A stretch of DNA of 64,000 nucleotides from an archaeon (GCA_018697095.1 JABHSG010000003.1:20457-84456); one strand, 5' to 3'. Positions 5,701 to 56,944 are shown, counted from the first letter of the stretch. Program-made: numbers and translations. Notes: generated by a model not told the origin, from the letters alone.

Positions 5701-5856
5701 AAATCCCACCCCTAAAATAATTCTCAAACTATCTTCTATACAAAATAAACTTAATTAAAACTAAAAGAAGAATGAATATATAATCCTTATTGAAATTTAA
5801 ACCTTCATTACATCTTAAAAAATGCTAAACTGGCCTTAAACTGATAATATTAACAA

Positions 5857-11325: not shown

Positions 11326-12945
11326 TCAAGAAGAAACTGCTACAATCCCGTTAATTTCACTCTCCTCGCCAGAATAAACACTAGTTACTGCAACATAATA
11401 ATCTCCACCTGCATAATCAAGACTACTTTCAAAATACACACTTTTTATTTCATCTCCACACACATATCCCTTACCAATTTCCATTGAATTTTCTGCTGGA
11501 CAACTATTCACTTTTTCAATCAAAATTCTTTCAAAAACATTGCTTGTAGAACTTGTACTTTGTAACTCAGAAAAAACTTGCCATTTGCCACTAAAACCTA
11601 AATTCTCATAATCTGTAAAATAAAGTACATAGGATTCAATTGAACTACTTGCTTCAAAACTAATCTCATATCCCCCACTATTAGAATTCAAACTAGAATC
11701 ATATAAAGCGCTAAGGCCACTTATTACTCCTGAGCTTCCACTAAAATCCAGTGCAAAATTATATTCAACATCCCGCTCATACAAACTCTCAACGCAAAAT
11801 TCTACTTTCCCATTAACAAAGCTAAACGAACTTTCAAGGCAAGACCCATAATTCCACCTCTCACCAACCTTAGAATCAAGGCAAGGCTGCAAAGGCGTTA
11901 CACCAGAACAACTCAAAAGTAATTGTTTTGATGCATCAAAAAGTGCATCATACTCTTCAAATTTATAATCACTAGAATAACTAAAATGTGGGTACACAAA
12001 ATAATTTGTGAAAGAAGATAATACATCTGCATTTTGTACTACTTCTACTCTATCAAGTACTTCAAGGCCATTTCGGGCAAACTCTCCCTTATCACTTAAA
12101 GACTCTTCGCAATAACTAACATCCCATTCACAACCATAATTGCAAGGGTCATAATCACAATAATATTGATTAACATATTTATCACAACTTACTTCTTCAG
12201 GGCAAACTCCACAAGAAGCATATTCATTCTCAGAGTAAAAACTCACACAATCAAGTGAGCAAGGGTCCAAATCGCAATATTCAGAAGACGCATAGTTTGA
12301 ACAAGAATCAAAGTTAGAACATTCTTTGCAAGAATTATAAACTAATTCTCCATTATACTCAAAAACCGTAGGCACTTTTCCTTTTTCTCCAAGGCATTGT
12401 AATTCTTCTTCAGAAAAACTACTTTCTTCAAAGTAACGTGGCAAAATTTCAATCTTATCAGAAGCCAAGAAAACAATTTCTTCTCCTGAAAAAAACATAT
12501 TATATTCAATATGGTCAAACCCACTCCTATTTAATTCTAAAATTCCGCTCGCGGCTTCTTTCAAAAATTCAGATTTATATGATGGAAAACAAAAACTTCC
12601 TCCTAAATTCCAAAGGGCAGCCCCACTATACGCCCCACATGAACTACTATCACTCAGATTAAAATATCCGCCTTTCTTAGCCAAATCAATTGTGCTATCT
12701 TCCAAAACTAACGTTAATATCAAATCATTAGATAACAAAATTTCATCACGTTGTGAACTATACTCTTCTAAAAAATCAGATTGCCACTGTCCTTTTACAG
12801 GAAAATCAGTATCCAAACTTAAGTCAAAACTATCTGAAAGGGCCATAAATATTCCAAACGCAAATATAAGTCCAATAAGTATAAAACTAATAACTGTTCC
12901 TTTCTTGTTTAAGAAATTAAACTTTAAAAAATTAAATCTCAACAT
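11326..12945 (-). CDS. prepilin-like N-terminus, Cys-rich secreted protein (539 aa)
   Basis: The N-terminus is ...FLNKKG/TVISFILIGLIFAFGIF. Two tandem CxxCx5Cx8Cx4Cx3C modules are present. The protein is acidic. Confidence 0.5.
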   Translation of the reverse strand: MLRFNFLKFNFLNKKGTVISFILIGLIFAFGIFMALSDSFDLSLDTDFPVKGQWQSDFLEEYSSQRDEILLSNDLILTLVLEDSTIDLAKKGGYFNLSDSSSCGAYSGAALWNLGGSFCFPSYKSEFLKEAASGILELNRSGFDHIEYNMFFSGEEIVFLASDKIEILPRYFEESSFSEEELQCLGEKGKVPTVFEYNGELVYNSCKECSNFDSCSNYASSEYCDLDPCSLDCVSFYSENEYASCGVCPEEVSCDKYVNQYYCDYDPCNYGCEWDVSYCEESLSDKGEFARNGLEVLDRVEVVQNADVLSSFTNYFVYPHFSYSSDYKFEEYDALFDASKQLLLSCSGVTPLQPCLDSKVGERWNYGSCLESSFSFVNGKVEFCVESLYERDVEYNFALDFSGSSGVISGLSALYDSSLNSNSGGYEISFEASSSIESYVLYFTDYENLGFSGKWQVFSELQSTSSTSNVFERILIEKVNSCPAENSMEIGKGYVCGDEIKSVYFESSLDYAGGDYYVAVTSVYSGEESEINGIVAVSS

Positions 12946-13567
12946 AATACCTCACTATAACGCTCTGAATTTCTAATCCATTTGCGCCATTCTCACTACC
13001 ACTAACCAATCCCTCTTCCAAACTTATTGGTACTTCCACTTGTGCATAAAAATCAGGCCGAGTGAAAATTCCGCTACCAGCGCGATAAGATGCAAGTACA
13101 TTTTCTTCTAAAAATTCATTAGATGAATAAACAATCACAATTCCCTCATATCCTGTTGACTCAAAATGTGCCTCAGCGTGCGCCTCGAACAAACCCCAAT
13201 TAGACACTTCAACTCCGTGCACTATAACTTCATTTGCTAAATAACTTCTCTCACCCAATTCATCAGATATACCTTTGCTTTCACTACCTTTTCCATCTTC
13301 GCCACTTTCGCCACCTTCATTTTCTAAAATAAAAGATGAACGCATATAATGAGATAACCCTTGTTCAAGTTCAAAGTCATCCAGGTAAGCATTGGTCTGC
13401 TCCTGTGCAGCGCTCACTGTAAAAGTAAGATACAAAAATAATGAAACGCCCGCAAAAAAAAGCGCTAAGATAGTAAACACTAAATCAAACAAATCATCAA
13501 TTTGCCCTTTTTTAGAAGCAAATAATCTTGGCCTCTTTCTTCCCAGTTTACTTTTCACCAAAAACAT
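12932..13567 (-). CDS. class III signal peptide (prepilin-like) protein, 211 aa
   Basis: ...FASKKG/QIDDLFDLVFTILALFFAGVSLF. The start overlaps the upstream stop as TAATG. Confidence 0.5.
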   Translation of the reverse strand: MFLVKSKLGRKRPRLFASKKGQIDDLFDLVFTILALFFAGVSLFLYLTFTVSAAQEQTNAYLDDFELEQGLSHYMRSSFILENEGGESGEDGKGSESKGISDELGERSYLANEVIVHGVEVSNWGLFEAHAEAHFESTGYEGIVIVYSSNEFLEENVLASYRAGSGIFTRPDFYAQVEVPISLEEGLVSGSENGANGLEIQSVIVRYYVEI

Positions 13568-14118
13568 TAAATCCCCTCTTGCACAAACACTAATAGTTGT
13601 GTACTGAATTCTTCACTTCCACTTCTAACAATAACTGGGAACCTCAAAGTAAAATCAACTTTATTAAAAAAATTATTCGTCATCAATATTTTTTCTTCTC
13701 CACTGTCAACATCAATAGCATCAAACCCAACTAGTGACAATCCAAAATTGAAACTGCTATACCCCCTTTCAGAATCACTACGGTAACAATCATCAAGTCT
13801 TTCTTGAGTAAACTTATCTATATCAATAACTCCACTTTCTATCCTACCAGTTACTAAGTCTTGGTAAGTAAAACACTCAGCTGTATTTACAAACCTAAGT
13901 GCAGTTAGTTTTGCTTCGTATTCAGCTGGCACTGTGGACACTTCTCCTTGATAAATGGATAAAATCATTGCAAAAGCAAGTACTGTAATTGTAATTACTA
14001 CTCCTGCGATCATCCAAAAAATGGATTTACGTGCAATATCATACTGCCCTTTTTTTGATTTAAACATCCTAACCATTTTTCTAAATATTGCCTTTACCTT
14101 ATCCGACCTTCCATCCAA
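13567..14118 (-). CDS. class III signal peptide (prepilin-like) protein, 183 aa
   Basis: ...MFKSKKG/QYDIARKSIFWMIAGVVITITVLAF. Confidence 0.5.
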   Translation of the reverse strand: MDGRSDKVKAIFRKMVRMFKSKKGQYDIARKSIFWMIAGVVITITVLAFAMILSIYQGEVSTVPAEYEAKLTALRFVNTAECFTYQDLVTGRIESGVIDIDKFTQERLDDCYRSDSERGYSSFNFGLSLVGFDAIDVDSGEEKILMTNNFFNKVDFTLRFPVIVRSGSEEFSTQLLVFVQEGI

Positions 14119-14127
14119 ACATATTCA

Positions 14128-14541
14128 CTAAACGCAATTACTAAGTAACATATTTGTATTTTGTTTCACAAAACACAACTTCTCTGATTCCATTACTGAC
14201 CCTGTTGCCTTGTATCCTTTAGGGAGAGAAAAATAATTCGATATTCCAAAGCCTTTATCTTCATCATATAACGCAACTAAAATATGGTCTTGAAACAAGT
14301 GGAATTGATATGATGAAACATCCCCAGGGTATTCTACAACAACATCTCCAGGCGTAGCTACTAATGTGTCTACCATCATTTTCAAATCTTTAGAGAGTAT
14401 CGCTTTTTGAGTTCCAGTTGTACTTCCATAAGATTCTGCAATTTTAACCAATGTAAATATCACAAATAATACTATCAAAAGTTCAAATACTATAAACAAT
14501 ATTTGAACTCCCTTTTTACCACCAAATATTTTTTTCATCAT
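14128..14541 (-). CDS. class III signal peptide (prepilin-like) protein, 137 aa
   Basis: MMKKIFGGKKG/VQILFIVFELLIVLFVIF. Confidence 0.5.
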   Translation of the reverse strand: MMKKIFGGKKGVQILFIVFELLIVLFVIFTLVKIAESYGSTTGTQKAILSKDLKMMVDTLVATPGDVVVEYPGDVSSYQFHLFQDHILVALYDEDKGFGISNYFSLPKGYKATGSVMESEKLCFVKQNTNMLLSNCV

Positions 14542-14572
14542 AGGCCACGCAATTTCTCTATTACTTCTACTT

Positions 14573-15253
14573 CTAATCTAAATTATCTGGAGCTTTAGAA
14601 TCCGTTAAAACAACTGCATTATCAGTACGGGTCAGATAAATTACTCGCCTTCGGTTATCTTCGTCATAAGCAAGTACCAGTTCAGTGGCTTCCGCCAAAT
14701 TTCTTTCAATTACAAACCCACCTTCACAACTCACTGAATTTACATTCTCTGGGTCTCCTACTGCGCAAGAATCAATTTCAAGTGGAAAACTCAAATCTTC
14801 ACAAAGCACTCTTTCAGCCTTAATTACAGTAGTAACAAGTGTGTCACTTCCTTCAGTTTGATAAAAGTCATCCCTCTCAGACTGAACACTCCTAAATAAA
14901 CAAATACAATTTCCACTATCTCCACATGCAGAGGGTTTCTCAAAAAACATTGTTAGATCTGTTTCAGGGAATGGGTAATCAATTACAACATCAACTTGTG
15001 AAATTCCATTTTCAAAATAAACAATTGCTGTCTCTTCATCCATAATCAATATTTCGCTACTTCTCTCGCCTACAAACGATTCAGCAGCAAAGTTCGCTAT
15101 CTCTTGTACGAAATCCGCATAGTTCTCTTTGGCTTGATCACTTGTACGAAATATATTAGACGCAATCATGCAAGCTGGTGCAAATACAATTAATCCTAAT
15201 AGTAGTGATACCAAAAACTTCACCATAAAACCCTTGCGATTCATTTTAAACAT
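14573..15253 (-). CDS. prepilin-like Cys-containing protein, 226 aa
   Basis: MFKMNRKG/FMVKFLVSLLLGLIVF. The ATG at 15253 makes a TAATG overlap with the upstream stop. Confidence 0.45.
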   Translation of the reverse strand: MFKMNRKGFMVKFLVSLLLGLIVFAPACMIASNIFRTSDQAKENYADFVQEIANFAAESFVGERSSEILIMDEETAIVYFENGISQVDVVIDYPFPETDLTMFFEKPSACGDSGNCICLFRSVQSERDDFYQTEGSDTLVTTVIKAERVLCEDLSFPLEIDSCAVGDPENVNSVSCEGGFVIERNLAEATELVLAYDEDNRRRVIYLTRTDNAVVLTDSKAPDNLD

Positions 15254-16104
15254 TAACTTTTCACCCATTCTCCACTATTACAAACATAATTTTTCCCAGA
15301 AACTTCCAAACTGCGTCCTTCTTGTCCGTCCTTACATCCAAACCAAAAACCACTGCTACAAATCAAAGAACCATATTCTGAACTAGACTCCCATCTCCAA
15401 GAAAATAGTCCCTCAGGGTCAGCTTCATCATCAATTGACAAATAAGATCCGCGAACCATATACTCTTTAATTGAAGCTACTCCACTTTGCGAAATTATTG
15501 CTCCACTTCCAAAACTTGCTTGTCCACAATCGTGCGGATCTAAAATACCATCATCTTCACTAGCCATAATTAAACAATAATCACTATTTTTTGGATAACT
15601 AAATTCGTCAACATCACAATCATTATCTTCGCTATGGCATTCTCGCCCAACCATGCCAACACACGCCTGTGCGATTTCACCAGTCCCAGCACCCAAAACT
15701 TCTCCATTGTCATCATCACCAAAAATTTCAATAGATCTATAATGTTCAAACCCTCCTTCAAATGAAGAAACATCAACTTCGCTTTGATCAGTATTCGTTT
15801 TGCCACACTCAGTATCAGAATTATAACTGTCTTGGTCTGCCGCTTTTTCTAAAAGTTCATAGTCGCTTGGGCAACCTGAATTTCCTAAGTCACCATATGT
15901 ACAAGGACAATCATCTTGAAAATCTCGAAATCCATCCCCATCACTATCGGTTTGCACTGACCTAAACTGTCCTCTAATATCATCTCCAACGCCAAGAACG
16001 CCAGGGAAAAAAATCCGCACAGCTACCATTAAAACAACTATTGCAATCAAAAGAGTCATTAGTTTCCACCAAATCTGTTCAGCTCCTTTTTTATTCAAAA
16101 ACAT
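15253..16104 (-). CDS. prepilin-like protein with Ca-binding-type Asp repeat, 283 aa
   Basis: MFLNKKG/AEQIWWKLMTLLIAIVVLMV, plus a DSDGDGFRDFQDDC motif. The internal ATG at 16104 is preferred because it gives a short signal peptide. Confidence 0.45.
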   Translation of the reverse strand: MFLNKKGAEQIWWKLMTLLIAIVVLMVAVRIFFPGVLGVGDDIRGQFRSVQTDSDGDGFRDFQDDCPCTYGDLGNSGCPSDYELLEKAADQDSYNSDTECGKTNTDQSEVDVSSFEGGFEHYRSIEIFGDDDNGEVLGAGTGEIAQACVGMVGRECHSEDNDCDVDEFSYPKNSDYCLIMASEDDGILDPHDCGQASFGSGAIISQSGVASIKEYMVRGSYLSIDDEADPEGLFSWRWESSSEYGSLICSSGFWFGCKDGQEGRSLEVSGKNYVCNSGEWVKS

Positions 16105-16123
16105 AGATCTCAATATAACACCT

Positions 16124-17161
16124 TTATTTCCCTGCGATATCTTCTGATCCGCATTTCTCTTCGCCAATTGTTAAAAAATTAAGTGAAACAGTACTCACAT
16201 CTCTTTCTGTTTCGTCAAAAACAGTATCAACTAAATCGTTATACGCTGCGCTACCTGTGTAAGCACTAGCACCAAGCGCTACTCCACCAACTATAAGTCC
16301 GCCTTTAGCAACTGCAAGTGAACTACTCGCAATAAATACTGCTTCACCTGCTGTTGCTGCTGCTGCAATTCCTCCAGCACAAATTCCACCGGTCCCAACA
16401 ATACAAGCACCAGCGATCACTCCTCCAGTGACAACAACGCCAACACCGACATAAACAAGCGCCACTGTTCCAACAGTTTCAGCAACACCAAACCAAAATT
16501 CAGATGAGCTTTCTTTATTTTTAGGCATAAACGAAATAGAATAAGCTTCTCGTGGAATTATCGCAGGCGCAGTTACAATTGCTCTACCTGGGCCACCAGA
16601 ACTTTGCAAATAATCTAAATAACTTGTATTAGATTTTGAATATGTCTCTTCACGTAAAAATTCTTCAAACTCTTCTTGAGCTATATACCCGCCTTCGATT
16701 TCTTTCTCATCAACAAGTATTGTATAACAATTAAAACACATATTTTCTGTATTTGATATATCAAAAAAAGCATTTATGTCAGTATCATGTAACAGCTCTT
16801 CGTATTTACCCTCGCCAAACATCCACCAACAACTAGCCATCGAATCAGCGAATTCTCGCATTATTTCATCTCGCTCGCCGCTAACCTTCTTAACAATATT
16901 TTTACAAAGTGAAGGTGCCAATTTTGCTTCAACATCAACTCCCATACTCTCTAATCGAACCGCACTCTGTGCGCGAAGCGCATTACTTTCATGACATAAT
17001 ACTTCAGCTGCAATATCGTTTGATTCTGACATGAAGCGCATAAGAGTCCCAGAAACAAGTACAAATGCAATAAGTGTAATCATCATACCAATTAAAACTG
17101 ACCCAGTCATCCCTTTTTTAGAATTAATTACAAACCACTTTTCCTTCTTCTCAAGTCCCAT
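16124..17161 (-). CDS. prepilin-like protein with C-terminal glycine-zipper hydrophobic domain, 345 aa
   Basis: ...INSKKG/MTGSVLIGMMITLIAFVLV. Near the C-terminus is VGVGVVVTGGVIAGACIVGTGGICAGGIAAAATAGEAVFIASSSLAVAKGGLIVGGVALGASAY. The start at 17161 is a TAATG junction. Confidence 0.45.
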   Translation of the reverse strand: MGLEKKEKWFVINSKKGMTGSVLIGMMITLIAFVLVSGTLMRFMSESNDIAAEVLCHESNALRAQSAVRLESMGVDVEAKLAPSLCKNIVKKVSGERDEIMREFADSMASCWWMFGEGKYEELLHDTDINAFFDISNTENMCFNCYTILVDEKEIEGGYIAQEEFEEFLREETYSKSNTSYLDYLQSSGGPGRAIVTAPAIIPREAYSISFMPKNKESSSEFWFGVAETVGTVALVYVGVGVVVTGGVIAGACIVGTGGICAGGIAAAATAGEAVFIASSSLAVAKGGLIVGGVALGASAYTGSAAYNDLVDTVFDETERDVSTVSLNFLTIGEEKCGSEDIAGK

Positions 17162-17967
17162 TAGCAAAGTACCACCTTTGAATCGCCATTCTTAGCGCGA
17201 TTAGCAATAGAATCTTTTTCTCCTAAATCAAACCATTCATTTCCAATCCCATCTTCACTTGCATCAGTCACATAATTAGTTGGGAAAAAACAAATTACTC
17301 CATTCCCTGGTGTGTAAAGCCATCCTTCATTTTCAAAATTATCATTTTCATCATTAACAAAACTATTACCAAACTCTGGAATTTCTATTTTGTTACCACT
17401 ATTTCCAAAAGTTCCACCGTCTGAAAACCTAATGTCAAGTCCCCTCACGTTTCGATAGTTTGGTTCAATAAGAGCTGAAGAACTTTGTGAAATATAGTAA
17501 GAGAAAAAGTTAGGTGCTTCACGTAAATCTCCAGCGATCACACAAGGACTAACGCCATGTATTTCCTGACTTAAACTAGTGACAATTTGTTTGCCCCCAG
17601 CACCTCCACCAACTATTAACTGTGACCCATTCCCTGAATCATCAACTTTTAAAGATAAACTCATTCCTTCTTCTCCAAAATCTGGAACACTTACTGAAAC
17701 TTGAGAAAAACACGTTTTATTGGCATCTCGCATCTGCCCTATGACATCCACAAGCCGGCTAACAAACAATTTTTGATTATCACTAACTACGACTTCTCCA
17801 CCATCAAGTTCTTCAAGACCAACTTCAAAATCCACATAATCTGTGACCCCAAGAACTGTTTCTTTGAGGTCTTCCCACATACCACTTTCTCCATAAAAAA
17901 CCAAAACTGCCACAATTAAAACTAGTAAAGGAATAATATACATCACCATTCTGTTCAAACTTCCCAT
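17161..17967 (-). CDS. signal-anchored secreted protein, 268 aa (no [KR]G motif)
   Basis: MGSLNRMVMYIIPLLVLIVAVLVFYG is followed by an acidic ectodomain. Confidence 0.4.
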   Translation of the reverse strand: MGSLNRMVMYIIPLLVLIVAVLVFYGESGMWEDLKETVLGVTDYVDFEVGLEELDGGEVVVSDNQKLFVSRLVDVIGQMRDANKTCFSQVSVSVPDFGEEGMSLSLKVDDSGNGSQLIVGGGAGGKQIVTSLSQEIHGVSPCVIAGDLREAPNFFSYYISQSSSALIEPNYRNVRGLDIRFSDGGTFGNSGNKIEIPEFGNSFVNDENDNFENEGWLYTPGNGVICFFPTNYVTDASEDGIGNEWFDLGEKDSIANRAKNGDSKVVLC

Positions 17968-18006
17968 CTTTCAACCTAAACACTACAAGTAAATGTTCTC
18001 AAATCT

Positions 18007-18153
18007 TTAAAACAGATTCAAAATCCCTCCAAGTATTCCACTAGACTTTGTATTAAGAATAGCCCAAAGCCCAATTGCTGCAAATAATAATAAAAGTCCC
18101 AAAATTATTTTAACCAAAAAACTCATCTCAAATGCTGCTTTTTTAGATCTCAT
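18007..18153 (-). CDS. mini prepilin-like peptide, 48 aa
   Basis: MRSKKA/AFEMSFLVKIILGLLLLFAAIGLWAILNTKSSGILGGILNLF. A GAGG lies ~10 nt upstream of the ATG at 18153. Confidence 0.4.
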   Translation of the reverse strand: MRSKKAAFEMSFLVKIILGLLLLFAAIGLWAILNTKSSGILGGILNLF

Positions 18154-18207
18154 TATCCATCCTCTTTTTCTCAAAAATACACCTAATAAATCCAATTTGT
18201 AAATAGA

Positions 18208-18336
18208 TCACGGTGCAATTCCAGAGATTTTTCCTTTAAGTCCAATCATAAAAACAAAAAAGAGCATCAAAGCTGCTAAGCTAACAACAATTAATACTGT
18301 TGTACCTGAACTCATTGCCTTTTTTGTGTTCTGCAT
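18208..18336 (-). CDS. mini prepilin-like peptide, 42 aa
   Basis: MQNTKKA/MSSGTTVLIVVSLAALMLFFVFMIGLKGKISGIAP. Confidence 0.35.
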   Translation of the reverse strand: MQNTKKAMSSGTTVLIVVSLAALMLFFVFMIGLKGKISGIAP

Positions 18337-18456
18337 TATAGACGATAAAGAAGACTTGTGCCAATAAAAAGCTACCGGAAAATCAAACAACAAAAAGATA
18401 CAAAAATAACTTATAAAATTAAAAAATGAACAGAATAAACCTTTTAACTAATAGTA

Positions 18457-18747
18457 CTAACTATCAGCCGTACTTTTCTCAAAACAGCACCCTGAGGTTC
18501 CTTCACATTCAAAAGCTGAAGACCAAGTTCCTCCGCCCCTTGTTTTACAATCATTTGAATCTTCATACTCGCAACTTCCACCTTTGCTACCGCAATCTAA
18601 AAGCCCAATTTCCAAAACATTACTTTTGCTTGTAAACATCAAAATTAGAACAACCATTACAACAAGTGCAATCACCGCACCAATAATAATCCAAAACATA
18701 TTGGATTGCGCTTTTCTACCGGCTAAAAAATTTCGTAAATTTACCAT
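18457..18747 (-). CDS. small Cys-rich prepilin-like protein, 96 aa
   Basis: MVNLRNFLAGRKA/QSNMFWIIIGAVIALVVMVVLILMF, then a 6-Cys head (CGSKGGSCEYEDSNDC...CEGTSGCC). Confidence 0.45.
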   Translation of the reverse strand: MVNLRNFLAGRKAQSNMFWIIIGAVIALVVMVVLILMFTSKSNVLEIGLLDCGSKGGSCEYEDSNDCKTRGGGTWSSAFECEGTSGCCFEKSTADS

Positions 18748-18808
18748 AATGCACCACATCAAACTCTACAAAAATTAAAAATTAATTAAAATTAAAAATA
18801 CTAAACCT

Positions 18809-19186
18809 TTATTTCCACTTACATCCCGAAACAGATTCACATGAGTTTTCATCAATTCCAGCAGAGCGACAATCTGAAACTATTTCTTCAAACTCTTCGG
18901 CTGCTTCAATTTCAAGAACATCTTGGTTGTCAGAATCATCTTTAGCACGAGACATATCATTCAAAAATGCTTGTTCAGAAGATAAACTTGGGCGACAATC
19001 ACCATATGTGATTCTATATTTTGTGATTTGCGCTTGCCCTGCTTCTCCAATACCATCGGTAAAAACTGCCATTCGACCAGTGAAAATCAGAACCAAAACT
19101 ACAAGAACTATTAATGCTAATGCCGCAACAATAATCACGTTAAGCGAAAGTCCTTGTCCTTTTTTTCCTTTGAAAAGTTCCATCAT
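18809..19186 (-). CDS. prepilin-like protein, 125 aa (candidate major subunit)
   Basis: MMELFKGKKG/QGLSLNVIIVAALALIVLVVLVLIF. It has its own BRE/TATA at 19264-19275, and a GAGGT SD ~8 nt upstream. Confidence 0.5.
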   Translation of the reverse strand: MMELFKGKKGQGLSLNVIIVAALALIVLVVLVLIFTGRMAVFTDGIGEAGQAQITKYRITYGDCRPSLSSEQAFLNDMSRAKDDSDNQDVLEIEAAEEFEEIVSDCRSAGIDENSCESVSGCKWK

Positions 19187-19263
19187 CCATCAACCTCTTT
19201 TCCCCAATCGAATTGGCAATCTTTGGGAATTTTTTTAACTAAAATAAAATGTGCAAAAAGAAG

Positions 19264-19275
19264 TATATAAACGTT
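19264..19275 (-). promoter_or_regulatory. BRE/TATA promoter (minus strand AACGTTTATATA)
   Basis: The 12-mer is identical to those at 28835 and 39517. It lies 78 nt upstream of the ATG at 19186. Confidence 0.5.
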
Positions 19276-19313
19276 GCTGTAAAGCAACATTCAGAAATGA
19301 ATATTCATTTCTG
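19273..19313. repeat. two adjacent perfect inverted repeats between sub-operons
   Basis: gttgct-gtaa-agcaac lies at 19273-19288. The 22-bp perfect palindrome cagaaatgaat/attcatttctg lies at 19292-19313. Confidence 0.8.
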
Positions 19314-19415
19314 TAAGATTGCGTAGTTTACATATATTATCAACAACTTTATTGTCAGCCCGTCGCTATAAACTTCAATTTAAAAAATACTTAAAATTTT
19401 TATTGATAACAAAAT

Positions 19416-19979
19416 TCAATCACATAAATACAAAATATTTTCAACAATCCCAATGTCAGTTACAAAAATAGGAAACAAACCACTTGTATCTCTATTACTA
19501 GAACCTGCGCACCCACTACCGCCGCGCACATCTATAAGTATCGGCTCTTCTCCTGCAAGAAGTCTTGATTGAAATAAATAATCTTTTTGCCAAACACCAA
19601 GTGTTTCATTAAGCATAATCTCTATTTCTTGTTGCATAAAGGCGCAGCTATGCATTCCAAAACAATCATGTGAATTAAGTGTTGATGCATAATTCGCTGC
19701 GCAATCATCTATTAATTCAAGTCCAATACTAAGCACCTTAACTCTTGAATTTCCTGGTTCCACACAAGCAACTTCAGATTTAAGTAACGAACTCATTGTA
19801 GAATATGCCAGTCCTTTTCTGGTAAATATTTTTTCACTAGAATCATCTTGAAGTGCAAACTTCGCTAAAAAAAGCATCCCAAGAGTAATCATAATAACTA
19901 TTATTACAAGTCCAATCATTTCTGACTGCCCTAATTTAGATCCTTTAAATCTAAATTTAACAAAAACTTCAGCTGCCAT
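19416..19979 (-). CDS. class III signal peptide (prepilin-like) protein, 187 aa
   Basis: ...FKGSKLG/QSEMIGLVIIVIMITLGMLFLA. The start is a TAATG junction with the upstream stop. Confidence 0.5.
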   Translation of the reverse strand: MAAEVFVKFRFKGSKLGQSEMIGLVIIVIMITLGMLFLAKFALQDDSSEKIFTRKGLAYSTMSSLLKSEVACVEPGNSRVKVLSIGLELIDDCAANYASTLNSHDCFGMHSCAFMQQEIEIMLNETLGVWQKDYLFQSRLLAGEEPILIDVRGGSGCAGSSNRDTSGLFPIFVTDIGIVENILYLCD

Positions 19980-20533
19980 TAACTATACACCTCAACTGCT
20001 AAATATCCAAAGCTATAAACTCCATCATAAGAATAAAGTTCTTCAGGGCCACCAAGAGTATAATCTCTAAGCGCGACAATAAAATAAGTTGGTTCTTTTC
20101 TAGTCCAACTAGCTACTGTTTCTCCTTCATCATTAATACTTACTTTTTCTCTGTCATAAATGATCCAACTATGCTGTTCAGGATAGACCATATTTACAGA
20201 AATTTTAGAAAACCCAAACAAATTGAAATAGTAGTCATTAGAATGGGCCTCCATTATAGTTACAAGTTCCCGTACTTTTAGTAAATCAACACAATTATCT
20301 TCGGCTTCAGCTTCTCCTTGACTACACTGAAGTTCTGGCAAAAACAAAGCAATAAGCGTATTATCCATAGCAGTTTGCGCCACAAGTTCTTCTTGATACT
20401 GCTCAAAACTAGATTGACTAAATTTAAAATAAAATATTGCTGCAAAAAGTATCAATACAAAAAATATGAAAATAACTCCAACGGTCTCCATCATTTGCAT
20501 TTGTCCATGCTTACCGATTTTCATTTTGCCCAT
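19979..20533 (-). CDS. class III signal peptide (prepilin-like) protein, 184 aa
   Basis: MGKMKIGKHG/QMQMMETVGVIFIFFVLILFAAIF. Confidence 0.5.
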   Translation of the reverse strand: MGKMKIGKHGQMQMMETVGVIFIFFVLILFAAIFYFKFSQSSFEQYQEELVAQTAMDNTLIALFLPELQCSQGEAEAEDNCVDLLKVRELVTIMEAHSNDYYFNLFGFSKISVNMVYPEQHSWIIYDREKVSINDEGETVASWTRKEPTYFIVALRDYTLGGPEELYSYDGVYSFGYLAVEVYS

Positions 20534-20574
20534 CTTCCTAATAATCTAAATTTAATTCAACTATCCCTTGTAAA

Positions 20575-21693
20575 CTAATATAATTCAATACACCCAGCAT
20601 TATCTAATTCGTCATTAAGTTCTAATAATCTCCTAGAATACTCTTCAATATTAAGACAATCTTCATACCCTCTTGCAACGCAGCTAGTAATTTGAACCCC
20701 AAGAGGATTTAACTCCCCTGCTACATCGTCATAAAGCAAAAGGCATTCTGAATCATAATTTTCTGGGCTTTCATAAAAATTGGCAAGTTGCATAGCCTTT
20801 CCTTCGTAAACATCAACAATAATTTCCATTCTTTTGAATACTTTCATCATATTGCACTGATAATTTTCTTGTGACCCTGAAAAAAGCGCACTTATTTGCG
20901 CAGCATCCCTGTCTGAATTAAATAAAGAGATTATTGGAATCTGTCCAGCGCGATTTACTTTTGCAAATACATTTCCTTCTTTTTGATACAAGTCATACCC
21001 TCCAATTCCTAAAACTACCGCGCTGACATCTTGGTCTGACGCAGAATTCAGCTCAATTGGAACAGGGGCGCCAGCAGCAATATAACTTCCATCCAAATCG
21101 ATTATTCTTACATGTTCATTCGCGCCAATAGAACTTATTTCAGATGCACTGGTGACAAAGTCTATATTAAAAGAACTTGTTGCATTTTGTAATTCAGAAC
21201 CTAAAACAGAACTTGAACTACCAAACACATAATATTGATGACTTTGCCCAGTTAAAATCAAAATATCTGTTACTTTAAAGGGCATTTCATAAGGTAAACT
21301 CCACAAAATTAATTTTTTGGTACTAAATTTTGGAGGACTCATAATTACTTGTATTGGTAATTCCTGACTAGCTGTCGTACCAGTAATGCCATAACGTGCA
21401 AACACATCTAAAAATCCGCCGTCTGAATCAAGTTCACACTCAAAAAAAAGTTCCATGCTAGAAATCCCGCTAGTGTCAATCGTGTTGATTGTTTGTTCAG
21501 AGACCGTACTTCCAACAAGAATTGATTCCAAAATATTTACAACATCAAAATTAAGTTTTTGCTCAGAACTATCTTTTTGTTTAACTATAAGCCCAACAAA
21601 AAAAAGTAAAATTACCGCTCCAGCCACCATCACAAAGATCCAGTTAAAACTAAGTGTAAGTTGCCCTTTTTTTGAAACAGTCATATCACCCAT
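20575..21693 (-). CDS. class III signal peptide (prepilin-like) protein, 372 aa
   Basis: MGDMTVSKKG/QLTLSFNWIFVMVAGAVILLFFVGLIV. Confidence 0.5.
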   Translation of the reverse strand: MGDMTVSKKGQLTLSFNWIFVMVAGAVILLFFVGLIVKQKDSSEQKLNFDVVNILESILVGSTVSEQTINTIDTSGISSMELFFECELDSDGGFLDVFARYGITGTTASQELPIQVIMSPPKFSTKKLILWSLPYEMPFKVTDILILTGQSHQYYVFGSSSSVLGSELQNATSSFNIDFVTSASEISSIGANEHVRIIDLDGSYIAAGAPVPIELNSASDQDVSAVVLGIGGYDLYQKEGNVFAKVNRAGQIPIISLFNSDRDAAQISALFSGSQENYQCNMMKVFKRMEIIVDVYEGKAMQLANFYESPENYDSECLLLYDDVAGELNPLGVQITSCVARGYEDCLNIEEYSRRLLELNDELDNAGCIELY

Positions 21694-21751
21694 AAATTTC
21701 GCCTCTGTGAAAGTTCAAATCAATTTTTGTTTCAAACATCCACCCAATCAA

Positions 21752-22273
21752 TCAAGAAACTTCGCTAACTGCAGTACGTGAACCTTTCCCTTCAAGTCGT
21801 AGAGCAAAGCTTCCACTAAAAATATCCTCGCACAAAAAACCATCCTCAATTTCTAAGTTAAATACCTTTAACACAACTGGGCCAGGTGGAGTTAAAAATA
21901 CATTCTCGTCAGCAGCTGCATACCCTCCTTCTTGGCTTGCAGTTTCCCAAACATCACATGCGATAGGGTTTTTACTACAAAGTTCATTATTCGGATCAAA
22001 ATCTGCGTCCAAATCCACAAAACAAATCTCTTCATATTTACTTGGAAGTAAAAATTCGCTTTGTCTAACAGCCCCATATTCAGAATGAATCCGTTCAACG
22101 CTATTTTCTAAGTCACTTTTGAATTGAAAAAATTCAACGGTTTCTCCTTGCTCTAAAAAATCAGAGATTGCATTATAACCAAAAATCATTACAAATGCAA
22201 ATGTAATCCCTGCTACAATAAACATAAACACCTGTCCAATCCCTTGCGCCTTTTTTCCTAACATTACCTTCAC
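21752..22273 (-). CDS. class III signal peptide (prepilin-like) protein, 173 aa
   Basis: MKVMLGKKA/QGIGQVFMFIVAGITFAFVMIFG. Confidence 0.5.
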   Translation of the reverse strand: MKVMLGKKAQGIGQVFMFIVAGITFAFVMIFGYNAISDFLEQGETVEFFQFKSDLENSVERIHSEYGAVRQSEFLLPSKYEEICFVDLDADFDPNNELCSKNPIACDVWETASQEGGYAAADENVFLTPPGPVVLKVFNLEIEDGFLCEDIFSGSFALRLEGKGSRTAVSEVS

Positions 22274-22301: not shown

Positions 22302-25300
22302 TTACTCCTTACGTTGGTCGCTTAATTTTCGCAATTTCTTAAAAATATCTTGCGCATCTTCTTTACTTGCAACAGAATTAATTCCACCTTCAGAATTCGC
22401 TTTTGCATTACTTATTTTATCCAATTTATCAAACACTGACTTTTCATGTGGTTTAAGTCCTGCCCGAACTTCTTCTCGATGTTCACTATAAGTATCAGTT
22501 ACTTTGTCAAGCCGATTTAAACTAGCACCACGTGAACGAATGTGTTTTTCAAAATGTCCTAAGTGTGGTGTTTCTTGCGTAAACTCATCAAATACACCAG
22601 TACGTGACTTATCTTTTCTACGACCTTCATGTACTCTGCGAAGCCCAAATACTTTATCACGAAGACCTGCAAAAATTCCAGGACTTGCTCCAGCAGCTGA
22701 GGTTTCAACTCCTACTTGCACTCCTCTATTTCCTTGAACCCCTGAACTTCTCCTGGAACCTACATTACTTGCTCCAGCATTAATACTCGGTCTTGCCTCA
22801 GGTTGTCTTCTTCCAAAATTACCAGAAAGAGTATCAGAAACTACTTTTTTACCTGGGAGCGTTTGAGTATAATAGTAAATCAAACCGCCAATCCCACTAA
22901 AAGCCATCAAAAGTCCAAATATGAAAAGCAGTTTCCCTGCAATCCCTCCTTTAGAACTGGTAGGAGTGCTATCTCCATAATCATAATCTGTGTCAATTGA
23001 ATCGTCTAAATCAAGTCCATCGTCACTAGCTGGTGCATCACTTAAACAAGGATTGTACCCATTACGGTATTCTTCATAGTTATGCAGACCATCACCATCG
23101 TAATCTTCATCTCCATCAGTTATCCCATCATTGTCAGTATCTCTTGATAAATAATCAAATTCACAACTGGTTTGGTCAAACAATTTTTCCCAAGTATCAG
23201 GGAGCCCATCACTATCATAATCATCAGTTTGGTCATCGTCTTTTGTTTCTCCAAAAGAACACCCATCACTATCTACTGCTGAGCCCGCGCTGCTTCCACC
23301 GCACAGATCACAACTGTTTGCAATCCCATCCCCATCGCTATCAGGAAAATCAATTATCTCACTCCCAGTAATATTATTTCCAGAACTGTCAGTTGCACTA
23401 TAACAAATCCATCCACTTCCTTCATAACTAAGTGCGCCACCGTAATAAATTTCATCAGCAACGCAGCTACTACTATCCCCTGACTTACCATAAAGAATTT
23501 CTTTGCATCCAAGTGTATCAGAACAATCTAAACTAACTGCAACTTGATTACATGCAACACCAGTTGTGACTGCAACACTTGGTTCATCTGAGTCTGATAA
23601 ACAAAGTTCACTCTCAGGATCTGTTGCAATAAATCCATCACTATCAACTGACTCCCCTAAATTCCCTACAAAATCTTGGGCGCTTACTCTAACAAAATAA
23701 CTTGCGTTTTCAGTTAAACTAACATCCACACTGCTGCTATTTCCAAATGGCAAACTTCCACTTGCAACTAATGTATCACTTGTACCAGTATCAGTTTCAG
23801 TAAAGTTTTCTCCAAGTAATTCTCCTAAACTCTCATCCTCTATCCCTGAGTCTCCTACGTAAACCTCGTAATAAAATAAATCAATATCAGAATCCAGGCT
23901 TGCTGGGAAAAAAGACACCTGTTCTAATGAACATGAATAACTTCCATCATCTACTGTATCAATTACCGGGGCAGTCGCATCAACACTAAAAATAACTTCT
24001 GCTTCACGGCTAACTTCTCCAATCCTACAAGAAACAACATATTGGTAATCTCTTTCTTCTAAAACGCCTAATGCATAAGTATGGTCAACTCCACCTGTTT
24101 CTTCAAAACTAATTCCATCTACTTCGCAAATTGCATTTTTACTAGTTTCAACTTCTAAACTATATTCTCCTGGTAGCACATATCCTTCTGGTGAAACTGC
24201 CGCAATGTATCCTTCAACAGAATAATCTACTTCAAATTCAATTTCTACAGCTTCACTAAAATCTCCTGCACCATTTTTACATTGCGCAGCAAGCAAATAA
24301 TTTTTTTGTGCCCCAGTAAAACTAAATTCAAAATCAGAGATATGGGATAAGTCTAAGATTCCCTCTAATTCACCTTCAAAGCCATACTCCATAGTATCAT
24401 ACTCATAAGATCCAAGAATCTCGCCAGAAGATTCATCTGCAGTCAAATCACTAAATCTACAAACAGTTTTATCATCAGTATTAACGTACAAAAAGGTCTC
24501 AATACCTTCTGTTACAAAATCTGGATCAGCGTAAGCACTCCCTATCTCAGGTGCACTTGGGTCATATTCTAAGTTCATCAAAGTGGCAGGGCCAACTTCT
24601 CCACGATAATCCTCGCAAGCCACATAAAGTGTTTTCACATCACCACTACTCCCATAAGAGCTCAAAACATCTCCAGGAAAATCAGGATAAACATAGTAAT
24701 TATCACTTTCAGCTTCTATTGTCTTGTATGCAGGCTGAGAATAAATATCAAAGCCATCATTAAAATCAAATGTACAAATTCCAGTATCTACTTTTGTTGT
24801 GAAAGCCCAATCAAAAATGGCAGTATTACTAACTCCCCAAATTTCATCTTCATAATAATATTGTTCAGGGCTCACAAGTACAAGACCATACCCTTCAATC
24901 AAAATTTCTCCACAATCAGGGTAACCAAAAAGGCCGCCAGCATCAACAGAATAATAACAAATCTCAGTACTTTGCTCAATTAAAAGTTCACCAACATATT
25001 CTGTGTATCCATCAGCCGCTGCATATTCGCAACCTTCTCCTAAACAATAATATGTGTTAGCACATTCAAATCCATCACTACTACAAGAAAATCCTACAAT
25101 TGCAGTTTCAATAAAAAACTCTTCCCAGGCAAACCCACTTGGCTCCTCACTTCTTTCACCTTCACTCAAAATAATTTGTGTATCTGGCCCAGTAAAATCA
25201 ATTGTAAAGAAAAAGTAATCTTCTAAAATATCTCCAGTTAGTTGTTCAAGGCAAACTACTTGAATATTTCCTGCATATTCTCCCTCATAATATCCACTAA

Positions 25301-28300
25301 GAGAATTTGTTTCATGTAATTTCCCCCCTTCATCAGCACTAAAGGCGGCCAAACTAAGTCCACTATCAGTATCATAAAGTGTACAAACAGAACTTACCGC
25401 AGTTTCTACAGAAAAAGCAATTTCTGTTTCACTAACAACTCCTTCATATTCTGGATAAATTAAAGTTATATCTTGTTCCAAATCAAATACTATCTCTTCA
25501 TTTTCAATATGTGAATTTCCGTAATCATCAGTGCAAGTCACTTCAAGAGAATAAATAACTCCAAGTAAATTTTCAAAAATTGCTTCTTTATCAGAATCTC
25601 GTTCAGTACTAACTTCATCAATACTCCCAGAAGGTAAAATTTCTTCTAAATTAAAATCGCAACTAACTGGTTCATTCATATTACTCAAATAAACAGATAA
25701 ACTACTAATGTCAGCGCTTGTTTCAGCCAAATATTCTATATCATATGAAGGCTCTTCTGTGTCAATAAACACATATGTTTCTAAAACAGATTCCTGATTA
25801 TAATATTTATCAAGTGAAAAATATCTAAGTAAATAACTTTCTCCATCAATTATTGATCCTAGAATAAAACTACTATTAGTCAAATTCACTAGTATTTCTT
25901 CTTCTCCTAAAAGTCCTTCATAAAAGAGATATTCAAAATCATCACAAGCTGGCGAGTCCGCTGGCGCCAAACAATAAGCAAAAGACCCAAGTGGATTTTC
26001 TTGGTCCACTGTTAAAAAACTAACTTCGCTATGCACTGTACTAATTACTTCAAAACTGTCAGTTACAACTGTTGTTTGAGGTGAAATCACATCAACTTGG
26101 CAAGAACTATATTCTCCTGCAGTAAATTCAGTACAATCATCAACTCCATCTCCATTCCCATCTTTAAAACAATAACCTGTATCCACAAAAAATGAATGAA
26201 TCACTTCGCCGCTATCTACACTAGCTGCTCCAGTACTACTCTCTTGCCAAGAACAAACATTCCAAGAACATTGATCATCAGACCCAATCACTAATCCAGA
26301 ACTAATTCTTGTATCAAGTCCGCCTGAACACTCTAATGAAGAACTATAGGTATAACAATTTGAAAGTGAGTTTGGTGTATCTCCACATTCTAAACATTCG
26401 CTTGCATCATTATCACTAAAACAAGAACCTAAACTATTACAAACTTCAGGCATACAATAATTGTTTTCAAATAAACTTGCTTCTGATCCACAAAGAGAAC
26501 AAAATTCTCCGCTGCTTGCAGCAATCTCCTTCTCTTCAGCCGGAGCGCAATACCCTTTCCCTAGTTCATCTGTAACTGGAAAAATTGCACTATAATCTAA
26601 AAATTCGCTACTTCCAGTTCCTGCTTCTCCACTTTCAACACTTGCTGCACTAGTATCGATCCAATGACAGCTTTGTCCAAGACAATTGTTATTTCCACAG
26701 GCATCTTCGCTTTGATAATCAAAACAACTTGTAACTTCAGTGCAACTAAAACATGCATCAACTATTGAATAAGAATAATCATAATAACAAAAATTGTCAT
26801 ATCCACTCTCTTCTTGATATTCTCCATAACATGAATCTGATTCATAATAAAGTCCAAATGGGTCAGCACCTTGCGGCCATACTCCACATTCTCCTGCATC
26901 CTTACAAAGTGCAGAGCCTTCAGAGATAGCACTACAAAAATATGATGAATCAGAATCATCAAGCGCTGTACAGTCAGTCACTGCAACAATATTATTCTCC
27001 CCATCGCAACTATAAACTTGTTTTCTTTCATTAATACTAGAGGTGCTGTCTGAGTCAAATAAACAAAATTGCTCGCCAACTGCATATCCTTCACAATGGC
27101 TACTACCAAGAGTCACACTGGCATCTGCAGATGACGAAGATAATCTAACTTCATGTTCTCCATCTTCTCCAAGTGGGCCATCAGTATAAACTGCCCACAA
27201 AGAATATGAATACATTGTGTCCCACTCCAAGTCACTATCAATAAATGTTGTAGCAAGTGGTGATAACGCCTGATAATATTCCCCATTTAATTCTAATTTG
27301 TAACCACTTACTTCAGCGCAAGGTTTATCCCAATTAAGTTCCAATTCTGCCTCGCCAGAAACTACTTCTAAAAATAATTCCTCTACAGGTTTTTGATCAT
27401 TTTCCTCGCCATAACTACACTCACCAATTGTTTTTGAAAGAAGTAGACCTAGGTCTGTTGTCTCACCAGAAACAACTTCTAAAAACAATTCCTCACTCAC
27501 ATAATCTTGAAAAGTAGCATGAATTGTATAGTCTCCTTCTTCAAGGTACACTTCATAATTCCCTTCAGGATATTCTGAGTTCCCGAGTAAAACACCGTCA
27601 ACAAAAATACTTGCTCCATAAACTACGCTCTCAGATCCATCATGTTCAAGTTCCCCATCGCCATCTGAATCAAGCCAAGTAAATCCACTCACTCCTTGAA
27701 AATCAATAGAGTCTATTACCAAGTTCTCTGATAAATGTGATGATACAATTAATTCTACTTCGGTACTGAGGTAACCATACTTTGTCAAAGTAAAAGTGTA
27801 TGTCCCTACTGCTAATTCTTCAAAAGTATAACTTCCATCACTAGAGCTACTTCCACAATCGCTACTCCCGTCACTTCCTAAATAACAAATAGCTACTGAA
27901 CTAAGTAAATCTCCTGCTTGATTAAATACAAACCCGTCAAGAGTATAAGTTTCTCCAGATTCACTTAATGTGATATCAAGTTCAGATTGCTCAGCTGAAT
28001 CCAAACTTATTGAAGAAGAGACATCGCTATATCCGTCAAGTGAAACCCGTAAGATGTAGCTTCCAGGGTCGATGTTTGTAAAACTATAACTTCCATCACT
28101 TGAACTAACTGTACTAATACTGCTACTAAGTTCCATTTCTGCGCCAGAAAGTGCATTGCCATCTAAGTCAACAACAAATCCAATTAAACTCGCATCTTCT
28201 AAAACAACACCACAAATACTACTTTGACAATAACTTGGAGTAATTTCACTTCCAGTGATTAGCGTGATGTCATCTTCTGAAAGCCCTTGTTGGTCTGCAC

Positions 28301-28805: not shown

Positions 28806-28834
28806 AATTCCTATCTGAAAAGACCCAAAAGGCC

Positions 28835-28846
28835 TATATAAACGTT
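28835..28846 (-). promoter_or_regulatory. BRE/TATA promoter (minus strand AACGTTTATATA) of the giant-protein operon
   Basis: There are 29 nt between the TATA end and the ATG at 28805, implying a near-leaderless mRNA. Confidence 0.55.
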
Positions 28847-28919
28847 CCGACAATAGAGCTCTAAGAAATAGCTAAAAATAACAAACCTACAAAAAAAAAA
28901 TGTTCTAAATCATCAAGGT

Positions 28920-40244: not shown

Positions 40245-40429
40245 TTTTATTCCCCACGTTAACCATTTATAATCCAAGCTCCACAAAATAAATCATCTGT
40301 TTCTATAAAAGTATTTCCAAAAGGTGCTAAAATGACACATTTTACCTAGGGTTTAGTGCTATTGGTTCACTTTACCAAAGATATCGCTACAAAAGATATC
40401 CTTTTATACGAAAACTTCTATTAAACTAC

Positions 40430-43850: not shown

Positions 43851-43949
43851 AAGTAACTTGTAATAAAAAAAATATTAATAAACTATGTTGTCATCGTCAA
43901 AGAGTAAATGTTGCAAAACATATTTAAATAAACCCGTATTGTAACACGA

Positions 43950-46190: not shown

Positions 46191-46218
46191 AAATATAAAA
46201 TAAATTAAAAAATAAAAA

Positions 46219-52017: not shown

Positions 52018-52104
52018 ACAAAATAAATATATTAATTTTTTCTTTAATTTTTTTCTTGACTTTTGTAGAAATCGTTATATACTTCTTTATTTAATATCTT
52101 GTTA

Positions 52105-56837: not shown

Positions 56838-56944
56838 TTAATTAGTAAAACATAATAATAAACCTTGTAGGTTTATTCTTTAAACTATTCATTGTAACAG
56901 TTGTTTTTGTTTGCATTTTATTTCTAATTCAAAAAATATTTTTT

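Follow-up and report, generated by a model that had tools for sequence, protein, structure and literature searches.

What kind of structure is specified by a run of archaeal genes whose products open with the same short, basic leader? We address this question for a stretch of 64,000 nucleotides (nt) from an archaeon (GCA_018697095.1 JABHSG010000003.1:20457-84456), referred to here as the window, with positions counted from its first letter. The original prediction, made from the sequence, listed 16 proteins with a recurrent KKG/Q cleavage-type motif, most of them between 11326 and 22273, and placed them with the DUF361-type pilins that are processed by the prepilin peptidase EppA. We find that the block is a co-linear operon of about 16 genes, which encodes about 15 type IV pilin-like proteins beside a giant adhesin-like protein and is conserved across Woesearchaeota. 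Our preferred reading, to which we assign a probability of roughly 60%, is that the minus-strand genes from 11326 to 33952 make up a lineage-wide Woesearchaeota operon for a type IV filament-like surface structure. The products of the operon probably build a cell-surface filament.

The first evidence comes from the N-termini. Translation of the minus-strand open reading frames (ORFs) reproduces all 16 listed N-termini, 15 of them in 11326-22273 and the last in 31520-33952. The 16 proteins share one layout: the leader is short and basic, ends in [KR]-x-[GA], and leads directly into a stretch of ~20 hydrophobic residues; hydropathy gives a single N-terminal transmembrane (TM) segment in all members. 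Gln occupies the first position after the predicted cut (+1) in 9/16, as had been counted originally; with Gln at 3.0% of residues in the window proteins, the probability of at least 9/16 by chance is 2e-10. The cluster proteins are all acidic and Cys-rich, with few N-glycosylation sequons. The members are given here in the direction of transcription, and are named below by their first coordinate where this is shorter.

31520-33952, minus strand: 810-amino-acid (aa) protein of class III type, SNRG/QVTIFIILG; lies upstream in the extended cluster, no Pfam match
28920-30089, minus strand: Cys-rich protein of 389 aa; N-terminal signal KRRG/LISV...VFADESCF, further TM segment at aa 223-241
22302-28853, minus strand: giant 2,183-aa acidic surface protein with 80 Cys and an N-terminal signal; first gene of the conserved block
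21752-22273, minus strand: 173-aa pilin-like protein, GKKA/QGIGQVF; +1 varies among genomes
20575-21693, minus strand: 372-aa pilin-like protein, SKKG/QLTLSFNW; Gln+1 near-invariant
19979-20533, minus strand: 184-aa pilin-like protein, GKHG/QMQMMETVG; Gln+1 near-invariant, Glu+6 conserved (D/E at +6 in 97%)
19416-19979, minus strand: 187-aa pilin-like protein, SKLG/QSEMIGLV; Gln+1 invariant, Glu+3 (D/E at +3 in 100%)
19187-19415, minus strand: intergenic region of 229 nt; conserved internal promoter for the small pilin gene
18809-19186, minus strand: 125-aa small pilin, GKKG/QGLSLNVIIVAALALIVLVVLV-IFTGR; four Cys are invariant; candidate for the major (shaft) subunit
18457-18762, minus strand: small Cys-rich pilin of 101 aa, GRKA/QSNMFWIIIGAVIALV; paralogous to the 125-aa pilin (37% identity to 18809-19186)
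18208-18393, minus strand: tiny helix-only pilin-like ORF, TKKA/MSSGTTVLIVV..., mature ~35 aa, C-terminal Pro; likely ATG start 18336
18007-18195, minus strand: tiny helix-only pilin-like ORF, KKAA/FEMSFLVKIILG..., mature 41 aa; likely ATG start 18153
17161-17967, minus strand: 268-aa protein with an N-terminal TM segment and no [KR][GA] site; sole non-pilin-like operon member
16124-17167, minus strand: 347-aa pilin-like protein, SKKG/MTGSVLIG; TAATG start at 17161
15253-16167, minus strand: Cys-rich pilin-like protein of ~283-304 aa, NKKG/AEQIWWKL
14573-15268, minus strand: 226-231-aa pilin-like protein, NRKG/FMVKFLVS; start at 15268 or at the TAATG at 15253
14128-14541, minus strand: 137-aa pilin-like protein, GKKG/VQILFIVFE; acidic residue near +9
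13567-14118, minus strand: pilin-like protein of ~166-183 aa, SKKG/QYDIARKSIFWMIAG; charged residues between site and helix
12932-13567, minus strand: 211-aa pilin-like protein, SKKG/QIDDLFDLVF; TAATG start
11326-12945, minus strand: 539-aa Cys-rich pilin-like protein, NKKG/TVISFILIG; last block gene, followed by the RPA gene

How specific is the motif to these genes? When a mechanical detector was applied to the full set of 320 ORFs that are 35 aa or longer, 14/16 members were recovered. Outside the cluster it flagged three credible genes, all atypical: an M50 peptidase at an internal TM segment, the 47299-48255 protein at residue 54, and the lipobox signal of 34022-39493. KKG-like N-termini that look like Sec or lipoprotein signals also open two further ORFs, 28920-30089 (KRRG/L) and the plus-strand 30151-31515 (SKKG/I with a lipobox after it). 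Inside the block, 17161-17967 lacks the motif here and in 44/53 orthologues. The motif at 18007-18195 stands, with a shift in the cut position from the KKA/A originally read to the KKAA/F that orthologues suggest.

Is the arrangement peculiar to one contig, or a property of a lineage? The host of the window is a marine member of the Woesearchaeota (DPANN). Window proteins include archaeal RadA, TBP, MCM, Cdc6, the PolD small subunit, RPA, and an RNase P subunit; G+C content is ~35%, and marine samples of the Saanich Inlet type contain near-identical contigs. The cluster proteins have homologues only in records labelled Woesearchaeota, Nanoarchaeota, or Nanoarchaeia (DPANN), in unclassified "archaeon" metagenome-assembled genomes (MAGs), and in one set of third-party assemblies labelled "uncultured Methanosarcinales," a label that we take to be a mislabel. 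Every homologue is annotated "hypothetical" and carries no precomputed Pfam domain; this includes the 98 homologues of the 372-aa protein 20575-21693, all from Woesearchaeota/Nanoarchaeota. With this protein as marker and one genome per GTDB species, relatives turned up in at least 234 species representatives; 80 loci were retrieved for comparison.

Each window protein was then compared by BLAST with the ORFs of 82 loci; low counts are partly due to the 10-kb flank. Orthologues were found in 82 loci for 21752, 81 for 20575, 76 for 19979, 75 for 19416, 64 for 18809, 56 for 18457, 54 for 17161, 56 for 16124, 49 for 14573, 50 for 14128, and 46 for 13567; the less conserved 15253-16167 and the poorly conserved 12932-13567 were found in 22 and 7, and the 810-aa protein (31520) in 46. 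Orthologues of the giant protein (22302) are present in 79 loci, directly upstream of the pilin-like genes in each. The co-linear, single-strand gene order is kept in 80/82 loci. The RPA gene adjoins the 11326-12945 end of the block, an adjacency kept in at least 21 loci; across the 21 loci with both giant gene and RPA in range, the stretch between the two spans ~9.9 kb and contains a median of 16 ORFs, of which 14 have class III-like N-termini. A mobile or viral origin of the cluster was considered and is unlikely, because its chromosomal neighbors are fixed and its genes are co-linear in 80/82 genomes. The searchable literature yielded no account of this operon.

The motif itself is kept position by position in orthologues from ~80 other genomes. 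In nearly all of ~600 orthologues, the residue before the predicted cut (-1) is Gly or Ala, and -2/-3 are Lys or Arg. Motif and conservation together support the original view that many different proteins with class III (prepilin-type) signal peptides are encoded in a single, tightly packed operon. Comparing the 372-aa and 125-aa families profile to profile adds to this: similarity extends only over the KKGQ site and a few residues after it, which argues for selection on a recognition site, and such site-only similarity would be expected if a processing enzyme reads the KKGQ site.

These observations bear on the simplest alternative, in which the leaders are never cut: the proteins would be ordinary bitopic proteins with signal-anchor N-termini, and KKG would be the form that the positive-inside rule takes in this lineage. 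Some members of the neighborhood are consistent with it. The giant and 389-aa proteins start with KKRG and KRRG, yet look Sec-type, with AxA after the hydrophobic (h) region, and 17161-17967 is anchored with no motif at all. However, charge alone leaves unexplained the strict Gly/Ala at -1 and the near-invariant Gln+1 in five groups across ~80 genomes; the motif is absent from the other membrane and secreted proteins of the window; and the site is the only similarity between the two families compared. We regard uncleaved leaders as very unlikely. In 56/73 orthologues of the giant protein (e.g., locus L001, 3093-9398), the N-terminus reads KKRG, h-region, and AxA, followed by an invariant GCY, and appears Sec-like. 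A Gly is thus kept after KR even in this apparently Sec-type signal.

What does the residue at +1 tell us? It is set per orthologous group, Gln being near-invariant in five groups and absent or variable in nine or so. Gln+1 is found in 77/79 orthologues of 20575, 73/74 of 19979, 72/72 of 19416, and 60/64 of 18809, as well as in every orthologue of the 810-aa protein (31520) whose N-terminus lies in range, which reads [GA]/Q[ILV]T[ILV]F. Orthologues of 21752 have Met (41), Leu (15), Val (8), Ile (6), or Gln (4) at this position; those of 16124 (56 loci) have Met, Leu, or Ile, with Gln in 7; those of 14573 have Ile, Leu, or Phe; those of 14128 have Ser, Val, or Thr; those of 18457 (56 loci) have Ser, Gln, Asp, or Glu; and those of 13567 have Gln (17), Glu (6), Ile (3), or Val (3). 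The count of 9/16 thus appears to reflect two +1 classes that stand side by side in one operon in every genome.

Could these be DUF361-type Epd pilins, the archaeal "system 1" within the superfamily of type IV filaments (TFF), processed by a Gln+1-specific EppA-type enzyme and assembled into a stoichiometric minor-pilin complex, as originally proposed? The near-invariant Gln+1 of five groups speaks for it. The Gln+1 rule is real in Methanococcus maripaludis, where EppA substrates are DUF361 proteins with Gln at +1 and Glu at +5, and where a +1 Gln-to-Ala change abolishes processing (PMC3875500, PMC4390842). Epd-like "system 1" loci are placed in some DPANN by a 2026 preprint. Moreover, the tiny helix-only pilins encoded here resemble EpdE in having no globular head, and the pilin operon lies apart from an ATPase locus, as in M. 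maripaludis. Membership in DUF361 nevertheless fails. PF04021 (Class_IIIsignal, cut-off 23.7 bits) matched none of 19 window proteins and 10 wider relatives at E<=10; two synthetic DUF361-like N-termini, used as positive controls, scored 42.3 and 38.2 bits, and three Gln+1 N-termini from the window run alongside gave no score. The motif QxSxExxxL, which we take from the Pfam description to be that of the DUF361 family, occurs in 0 of ~610 orthologous N-termini. Glu+5 occurs in at most 4 per orthologous group; conserved acidic residues lie instead at +3 (19416), +6 (19979), and +9 (14128).

An EppA-like peptidase that requires Gln does not fit as sole processor either, since 7/16 proteins and whole orthologous groups have another residue at +1; were Gln+1 obligatory, half of the operon would not be processable by such an enzyme. 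EppA is a 9-TM enzyme that accompanies clade-1 pili and is often encoded inside the pilin locus (PMC4858521). No polytopic peptidase of this kind (arCOG02300) was found in or within 10 kb of the operon in the 82 loci. We consider this assignment unlikely. Judged from the N-termini, the likeness to EppA substrates would be functional, a class III site read at Gln, and not one of family membership; a distant evolutionary link to Epd-like "system 1" is possible. The general lesson is that "KKGQ" by itself does not assign a protein to DUF361.

Are the subunits made in equal amounts? The original prediction drew stoichiometric co-translation from the junction TAATG, in which the last A of the stop codon TAA is the A of ATG. 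All five such overlaps are present, at 7475, 13567, 15253, 17161, and 19979, and a Shine-Dalgarno-like motif (GGTG/GAGG) lies 8-12 nt upstream of every one. The overlap at 15253 is used only with that start; the source gene caller starts at 15268, which gives a 16-nt overlap. Co-translation in fixed proportions over-reads this pattern. TAATG occurs at 4/15 block junctions, the others being 9-60 nt gaps, other overlaps, and the 229-nt promoter gap, and overlap is kept across ~75 genomes at one junction only, 19979-to-19416 (60/75 loci, mostly as ATGA). Compact prokaryotic operons routinely have stop/start overlaps of one or four bases. TAATG was also rejected as a cluster-specific signal, because the identical overlap is found at the unrelated radA junction (7475). 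Taken as sequence features, the overlaps support co-transcription, and the 19979/19416 pair is probably translationally coupled.

Evidence against a single equimolar unit comes from 19187-19415, which is the block's sole long intergenic gap and lies upstream of the 125-aa gene. In this gap are T-runs, a pair of hairpins (19292-19313 and 19273-19288), a GAGGT Shine-Dalgarno motif, and a TATA-like box, TTTATATA, at 19264-19271, 77 nt upstream of the ATG of the 125-aa gene. A TATA-like box is present at this junction in 55/56 loci, often in the context CGTAAnGTTTATATAC, versus at most 7% at five other junctions; runs of at least five T are commonest after the gene that precedes the 125-aa gene (43%). 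Because the internal promoter is kept at the small-pilin junction, the block is predicted to comprise at least two transcription units and not one equimolar unit. The first would carry the giant protein and four pilin-like genes, and the second the separately promoted small pilin and the remaining genes. The single conserved overlap and the split by an internal promoter also count against the stoichiometric complex of the Epd/EppA assignment. Another part of the original prediction holds up better: most of the genes look like those of low-copy "minor" subunits and not of alternative major pilins.

What, then, does the separately promoted gene encode? The 125-aa pilin (18809-19186) has 312 homologues with a strongly conserved N-terminal module. 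An exhaustive HMMER search with the family profile returned 2,730 representative clusters (50% identity) at E<=1e-3; many of the weaker listed hits align only over the N-terminal ~45 residues, KK[GA]/QG[LI]S[LI]N-IIIAAIALIVLVVLV-IFTGR. All 17 sequences that were inspected join this module to unrelated small Cys-rich heads. The family headed by KK[GA]/QG[LI]S[LI]N..IIAAIALIVLVVLV.IFTGR is very large, and consists of 65-154-aa proteins with hypervariable Cys-rich heads; ten of its members were compared with Pfam, and none matches a pilin family there. A conserved helix that bears a diversifying exposed head, as these alignments suggest, is a pattern typical of pilins. Further shaft candidates lie downstream: between the small pilins and 17161, 51/53 loci carry two to four class III-like ORFs, mostly tiny. 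The first class (18208 in the window) has a mature length of ~33-36 aa, usually ends in Pro, and occurs in nearly all of the 53 loci; the second (18007 in the window) reads KKG/MEMWQ..., with a mature length of almost always exactly 41 aa.

Two families were modelled with AlphaFold2 from family alignments. In the 372-aa family (pLDDT 91.8), the N-terminal helix is 47 residues long (18-64) and is followed by a beta-rich domain, with a helical bundle at the C-terminus; the 125-aa family (pLDDT 79.2) shows a 44-residue helix (15-58) and a small helical head with four invariant Cys. The hydrophobic segment forms the first half of the N-terminal helix in both. A long N-terminal helix with a variable head, as modelled in these two families, is the architecture of type IV pilins.

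Class III N-termini can also serve other surface structures. They might anchor ectodomains in a non-filament assembly, a short pseudopilus or a bindosome-like or S-layer-associated complex around the giant protein. Most members are large (137-810 aa), acidic, and Cys-rich, with heads of unrelated novel folds, and they are co-transcribed in 79 loci with the C-terminally anchored 2,183-aa protein; in Sulfolobus, class III signals are placed on non-pilus surface proteins (PMC3047682). By Pfam, the giant protein contains CarboxypepD_reg/PEGA/fn3 Ig-like domains, and its C-terminal TM segment (aa 1969-1987) is followed by a basic tail. The 389-aa protein (28920-30089) is paralogous to its N-terminal part, and a BLAST search with the former also finds giant-protein orthologues. 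However, Pfam scans of the cluster reveal no substrate-binding or ABC-transporter domains, and the very small subunits, one highly conserved and separately promoted and others of 35-41 aa and helix-only, fit a polymerising shaft. On balance, we find a non-filament assembly improbable.

Under the preferred reading of a type IV filament-like structure, we infer the following scheme of cleavage, polymerisation, subunit roles, and biological function. Each pre-protein would insert into the membrane through its N-terminal hydrophobic helix. A prepilin-type (A24) aspartyl peptidase encoded elsewhere would cut after the [KR][KR][GA] leader. A FlaI/PilB-type ATPase and a FlaJ/TadC-type platform, also encoded elsewhere, would polymerise the helices into a fibre. 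The shaft would be formed by the small, separately promoted 18809-19186, possibly with its paralogue 18457-18762 and the two helix-only pilins. The larger subunits would be low-copy "minor pilins" that prime or cap the fibre and bear binding surfaces: a Gln+1 set (31520, 20575, 19979, and 19416) and a set with variable, mostly hydrophobic or small, residues at +1 (16124 through 11326). These subunits probably work with the co-transcribed 2,183-aa, Cys-rich, membrane-anchored protein, and the structure likely lets an ultra-small archaeon, probably an episymbiont, attach to other cells or to surfaces.

Where is the machine that would do this? The operon is linked to an assembly machine only as we infer it. 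Two genomic surveys annotate most Woesearchaeota MAGs with flaI, flaJ, and flaK (PMC11606122, PMC8407392), and filament machinery is therefore plausibly present in the lineage. A literature search returned nothing on Woesearchaeota with prepilin peptidase, nor on MMP1685 with pyroglutamate. Walker-A and polytopic-membrane scans of the 82 loci found unrelated proteins only (UbiA, permeases, VTT, MFS, and ABC-2). A FlaK query, its sequence checked against PDB 3S0X, was run with phmmer --max over six-frame ORFs of the window and 90 loci (1.58 Mb), and returned nothing below E=0.15.

Several results weigh against a filament, and we set them out together. In the 64-kb window, Pfam detects neither an A24 peptidase nor a PilB/FlaI ATPase or a PilC/FlaJ platform; the 10 kb past each window end hold housekeeping genes and no peptidase, ATPase, or platform; and none of the three lies within 10 kb of the marker gene in the 82 loci. 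The lack of a local peptidase speaks for uncleaved leaders, and that of nearby assembly genes across the 82 loci for a non-filament assembly. Pfam and NCBIfam searches of 19 candidate proteins at E<=10 gave noise only and no pilin family, as did Pfam searches of 10 wider relatives at the same threshold. Foldseek comparisons of the two models with the PDB gave best hits of E 0.03 (with a TM-score below 0.2) and E 2.9, and no solved pilin structure there resembles either head; the small-pilin family profile has no match among PDB sequences. Two members are atypical for pilins in the charged residues between predicted cut and helix (13567 and 12932), and a third, 16124-17167, has three extra Gly/Ala-rich hydrophobic segments near its C-terminus (aa 226-294), which might anchor part of the assembly in the membrane. 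Finally, a physical link between giant protein and fibre is speculative, as the giant protein has its own Sec-like signal and C-terminal anchor.

How does the operon compare with known systems? It shares with the Epd pili of M. maripaludis (EpdA-E, EppA) a multi-gene operon of different class III signal-peptide proteins, many with Gln+1, a very small major pilin with no globular head, and pilin genes apart from the ATPase/platform locus. It differs in the missing PF04021 match, QxSxExxxL, and Glu+5, in the half of its members with other residues at +1, and in gene content: eppA lies inside the epd operon of M. maripaludis, whereas this operon has no peptidase gene, carries ~14-15 pilin-like genes against five designated pilins (EpdA-E), and has a giant surface-protein gene at its head. 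The FimU-PilVWX-PilY1 set of type IVa pili and the GspH-K pseudopilins of type II secretion likewise comprise at least four co-transcribed, tightly coupled, and mutually dissimilar pilin-like genes, with a very large adhesin-like gene adjoining and an abundant small pilin transcribed separately. Here, in contrast, the host is an archaeon, neither sequence nor fold is similar, the leader reads [KR][KR][GA]/Q in place of G/F with Glu5, and the large protein is anchored in the membrane and has no relation to PilY1.

Flp/Tad pilins resemble the tiny ORFs in having mature subunits of ~35-45 aa that are essentially one hydrophobic helix. The Flp motif G/XXXXEY is, however, absent from these ORFs (KKG/MEMWQL... 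or KKA/MSSGTT..., no Glu-Tyr at +5/+6), and tad genes were not found nearby. The Sulfolobus bindosome (Bas system) also places class III signals on large, diverse extracellular proteins and does not require a long pilus, but the cluster proteins and their neighbors have no substrate-binding protein (SBP) or ABC domains, and no bas genes lie nearby. Divergent DPANN pilin islands were already anticipated in general terms: Makarova, Wolf & Koonin (2019; PMC6393860) read DPANN "dark matter" islands of signal-peptide proteins as divergent pilins. Those islands are likewise runs of unannotatable signal-peptide proteins; they were recognised by adjacent FlaI/TadC, of which there is none within 10 kb here in 82 genomes, and the operon differs further in its fixed gene order with RPA as a fixed neighbor.

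A more ambitious version of the filament reading can be offered tentatively, and we doubt that it holds as a whole. The structure would be a Woesearchaeota-specific filament outside the described archaeal TFF subtypes, with a shaft of ~115-aa disulfide-bonded helical and/or 35-41-aa helix-only pilins, and a tip or base complex of at least 10 novel-fold subunits that couples the fibre to a 2,100-aa adhesin; the two cleavage-site classes (Gln+1 versus variable, mostly hydrophobic or small +1) would mark two sub-assemblies or processing routes.

The remainder of the window holds several features of separate interest. Three secreted proteins beside the cluster have lipobox-like signals: 34022-39493 (minus strand), 30151-31515 (plus strand), and 39651-40286 (minus strand), with the sequences ..LFLSSC, ..LLPAC, and ..GSGC. 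A Peptidase_A8 (lipoprotein signal peptidase II, PF01252) is also encoded in this genome, ~17 kb past the window start (locus L088, 20241-20735); a bacterial-type Lsp is unusual in an archaeon and may reflect horizontal transfer. A 525-aa protein (4150-5727, minus strand) matches PPDK_N (pyruvate phosphate dikinase ATP-binding) and no other PPDK domain. Three ORFs in 42339-47001 (503, 746, and 260 aa) have no Pfam match. GC skew is positive at 44-46 kb, unlike in the remaining window. A 300-aa protein (52099-53001, plus strand) matches the HopA1 effector family (PF17914, E 1.9e-10), which is known from plant-pathogen type III effectors and would not be expected in an archaeon. A 656-nt AT-rich gap (56838-57493) lies between MCM/SpoIIM and Cdc6/PolD, upstream of cdc6, with an inverted pair of CAGTGGAAA...GGGGGG-type elements (arms 56943-56979 and 57323-57359) around ~340 nt of A/T-rich repeats. 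This is likely a replication origin, because the elements resemble archaeal origin recognition boxes (ORB) that flank an unwinding element. Transfer RNA and Rfam scans of the window returned nothing.

What would this operon mean for its hosts? The ultra-small Woesearchaeota are abundant and uncultivated, and are presumed to live attached to other cells. A fixed ~10-kb operon in at least 234 species-level genomes, with no database annotation, is a concrete candidate for their attachment apparatus. If the filament is indeed specific to Woesearchaeota, it would be a dedicated host-attachment organelle of the lineage, and helix-only shaft pilins of 35-41 aa would be among the smallest known. The conservation of Gln+1 and variable-+1 groups within one operon provides a natural test of prepilin-peptidase specificity. 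More broadly, the operon and its relatives would add to the pilin superfamily thousands of proteins that are missed by current hidden Markov model libraries.

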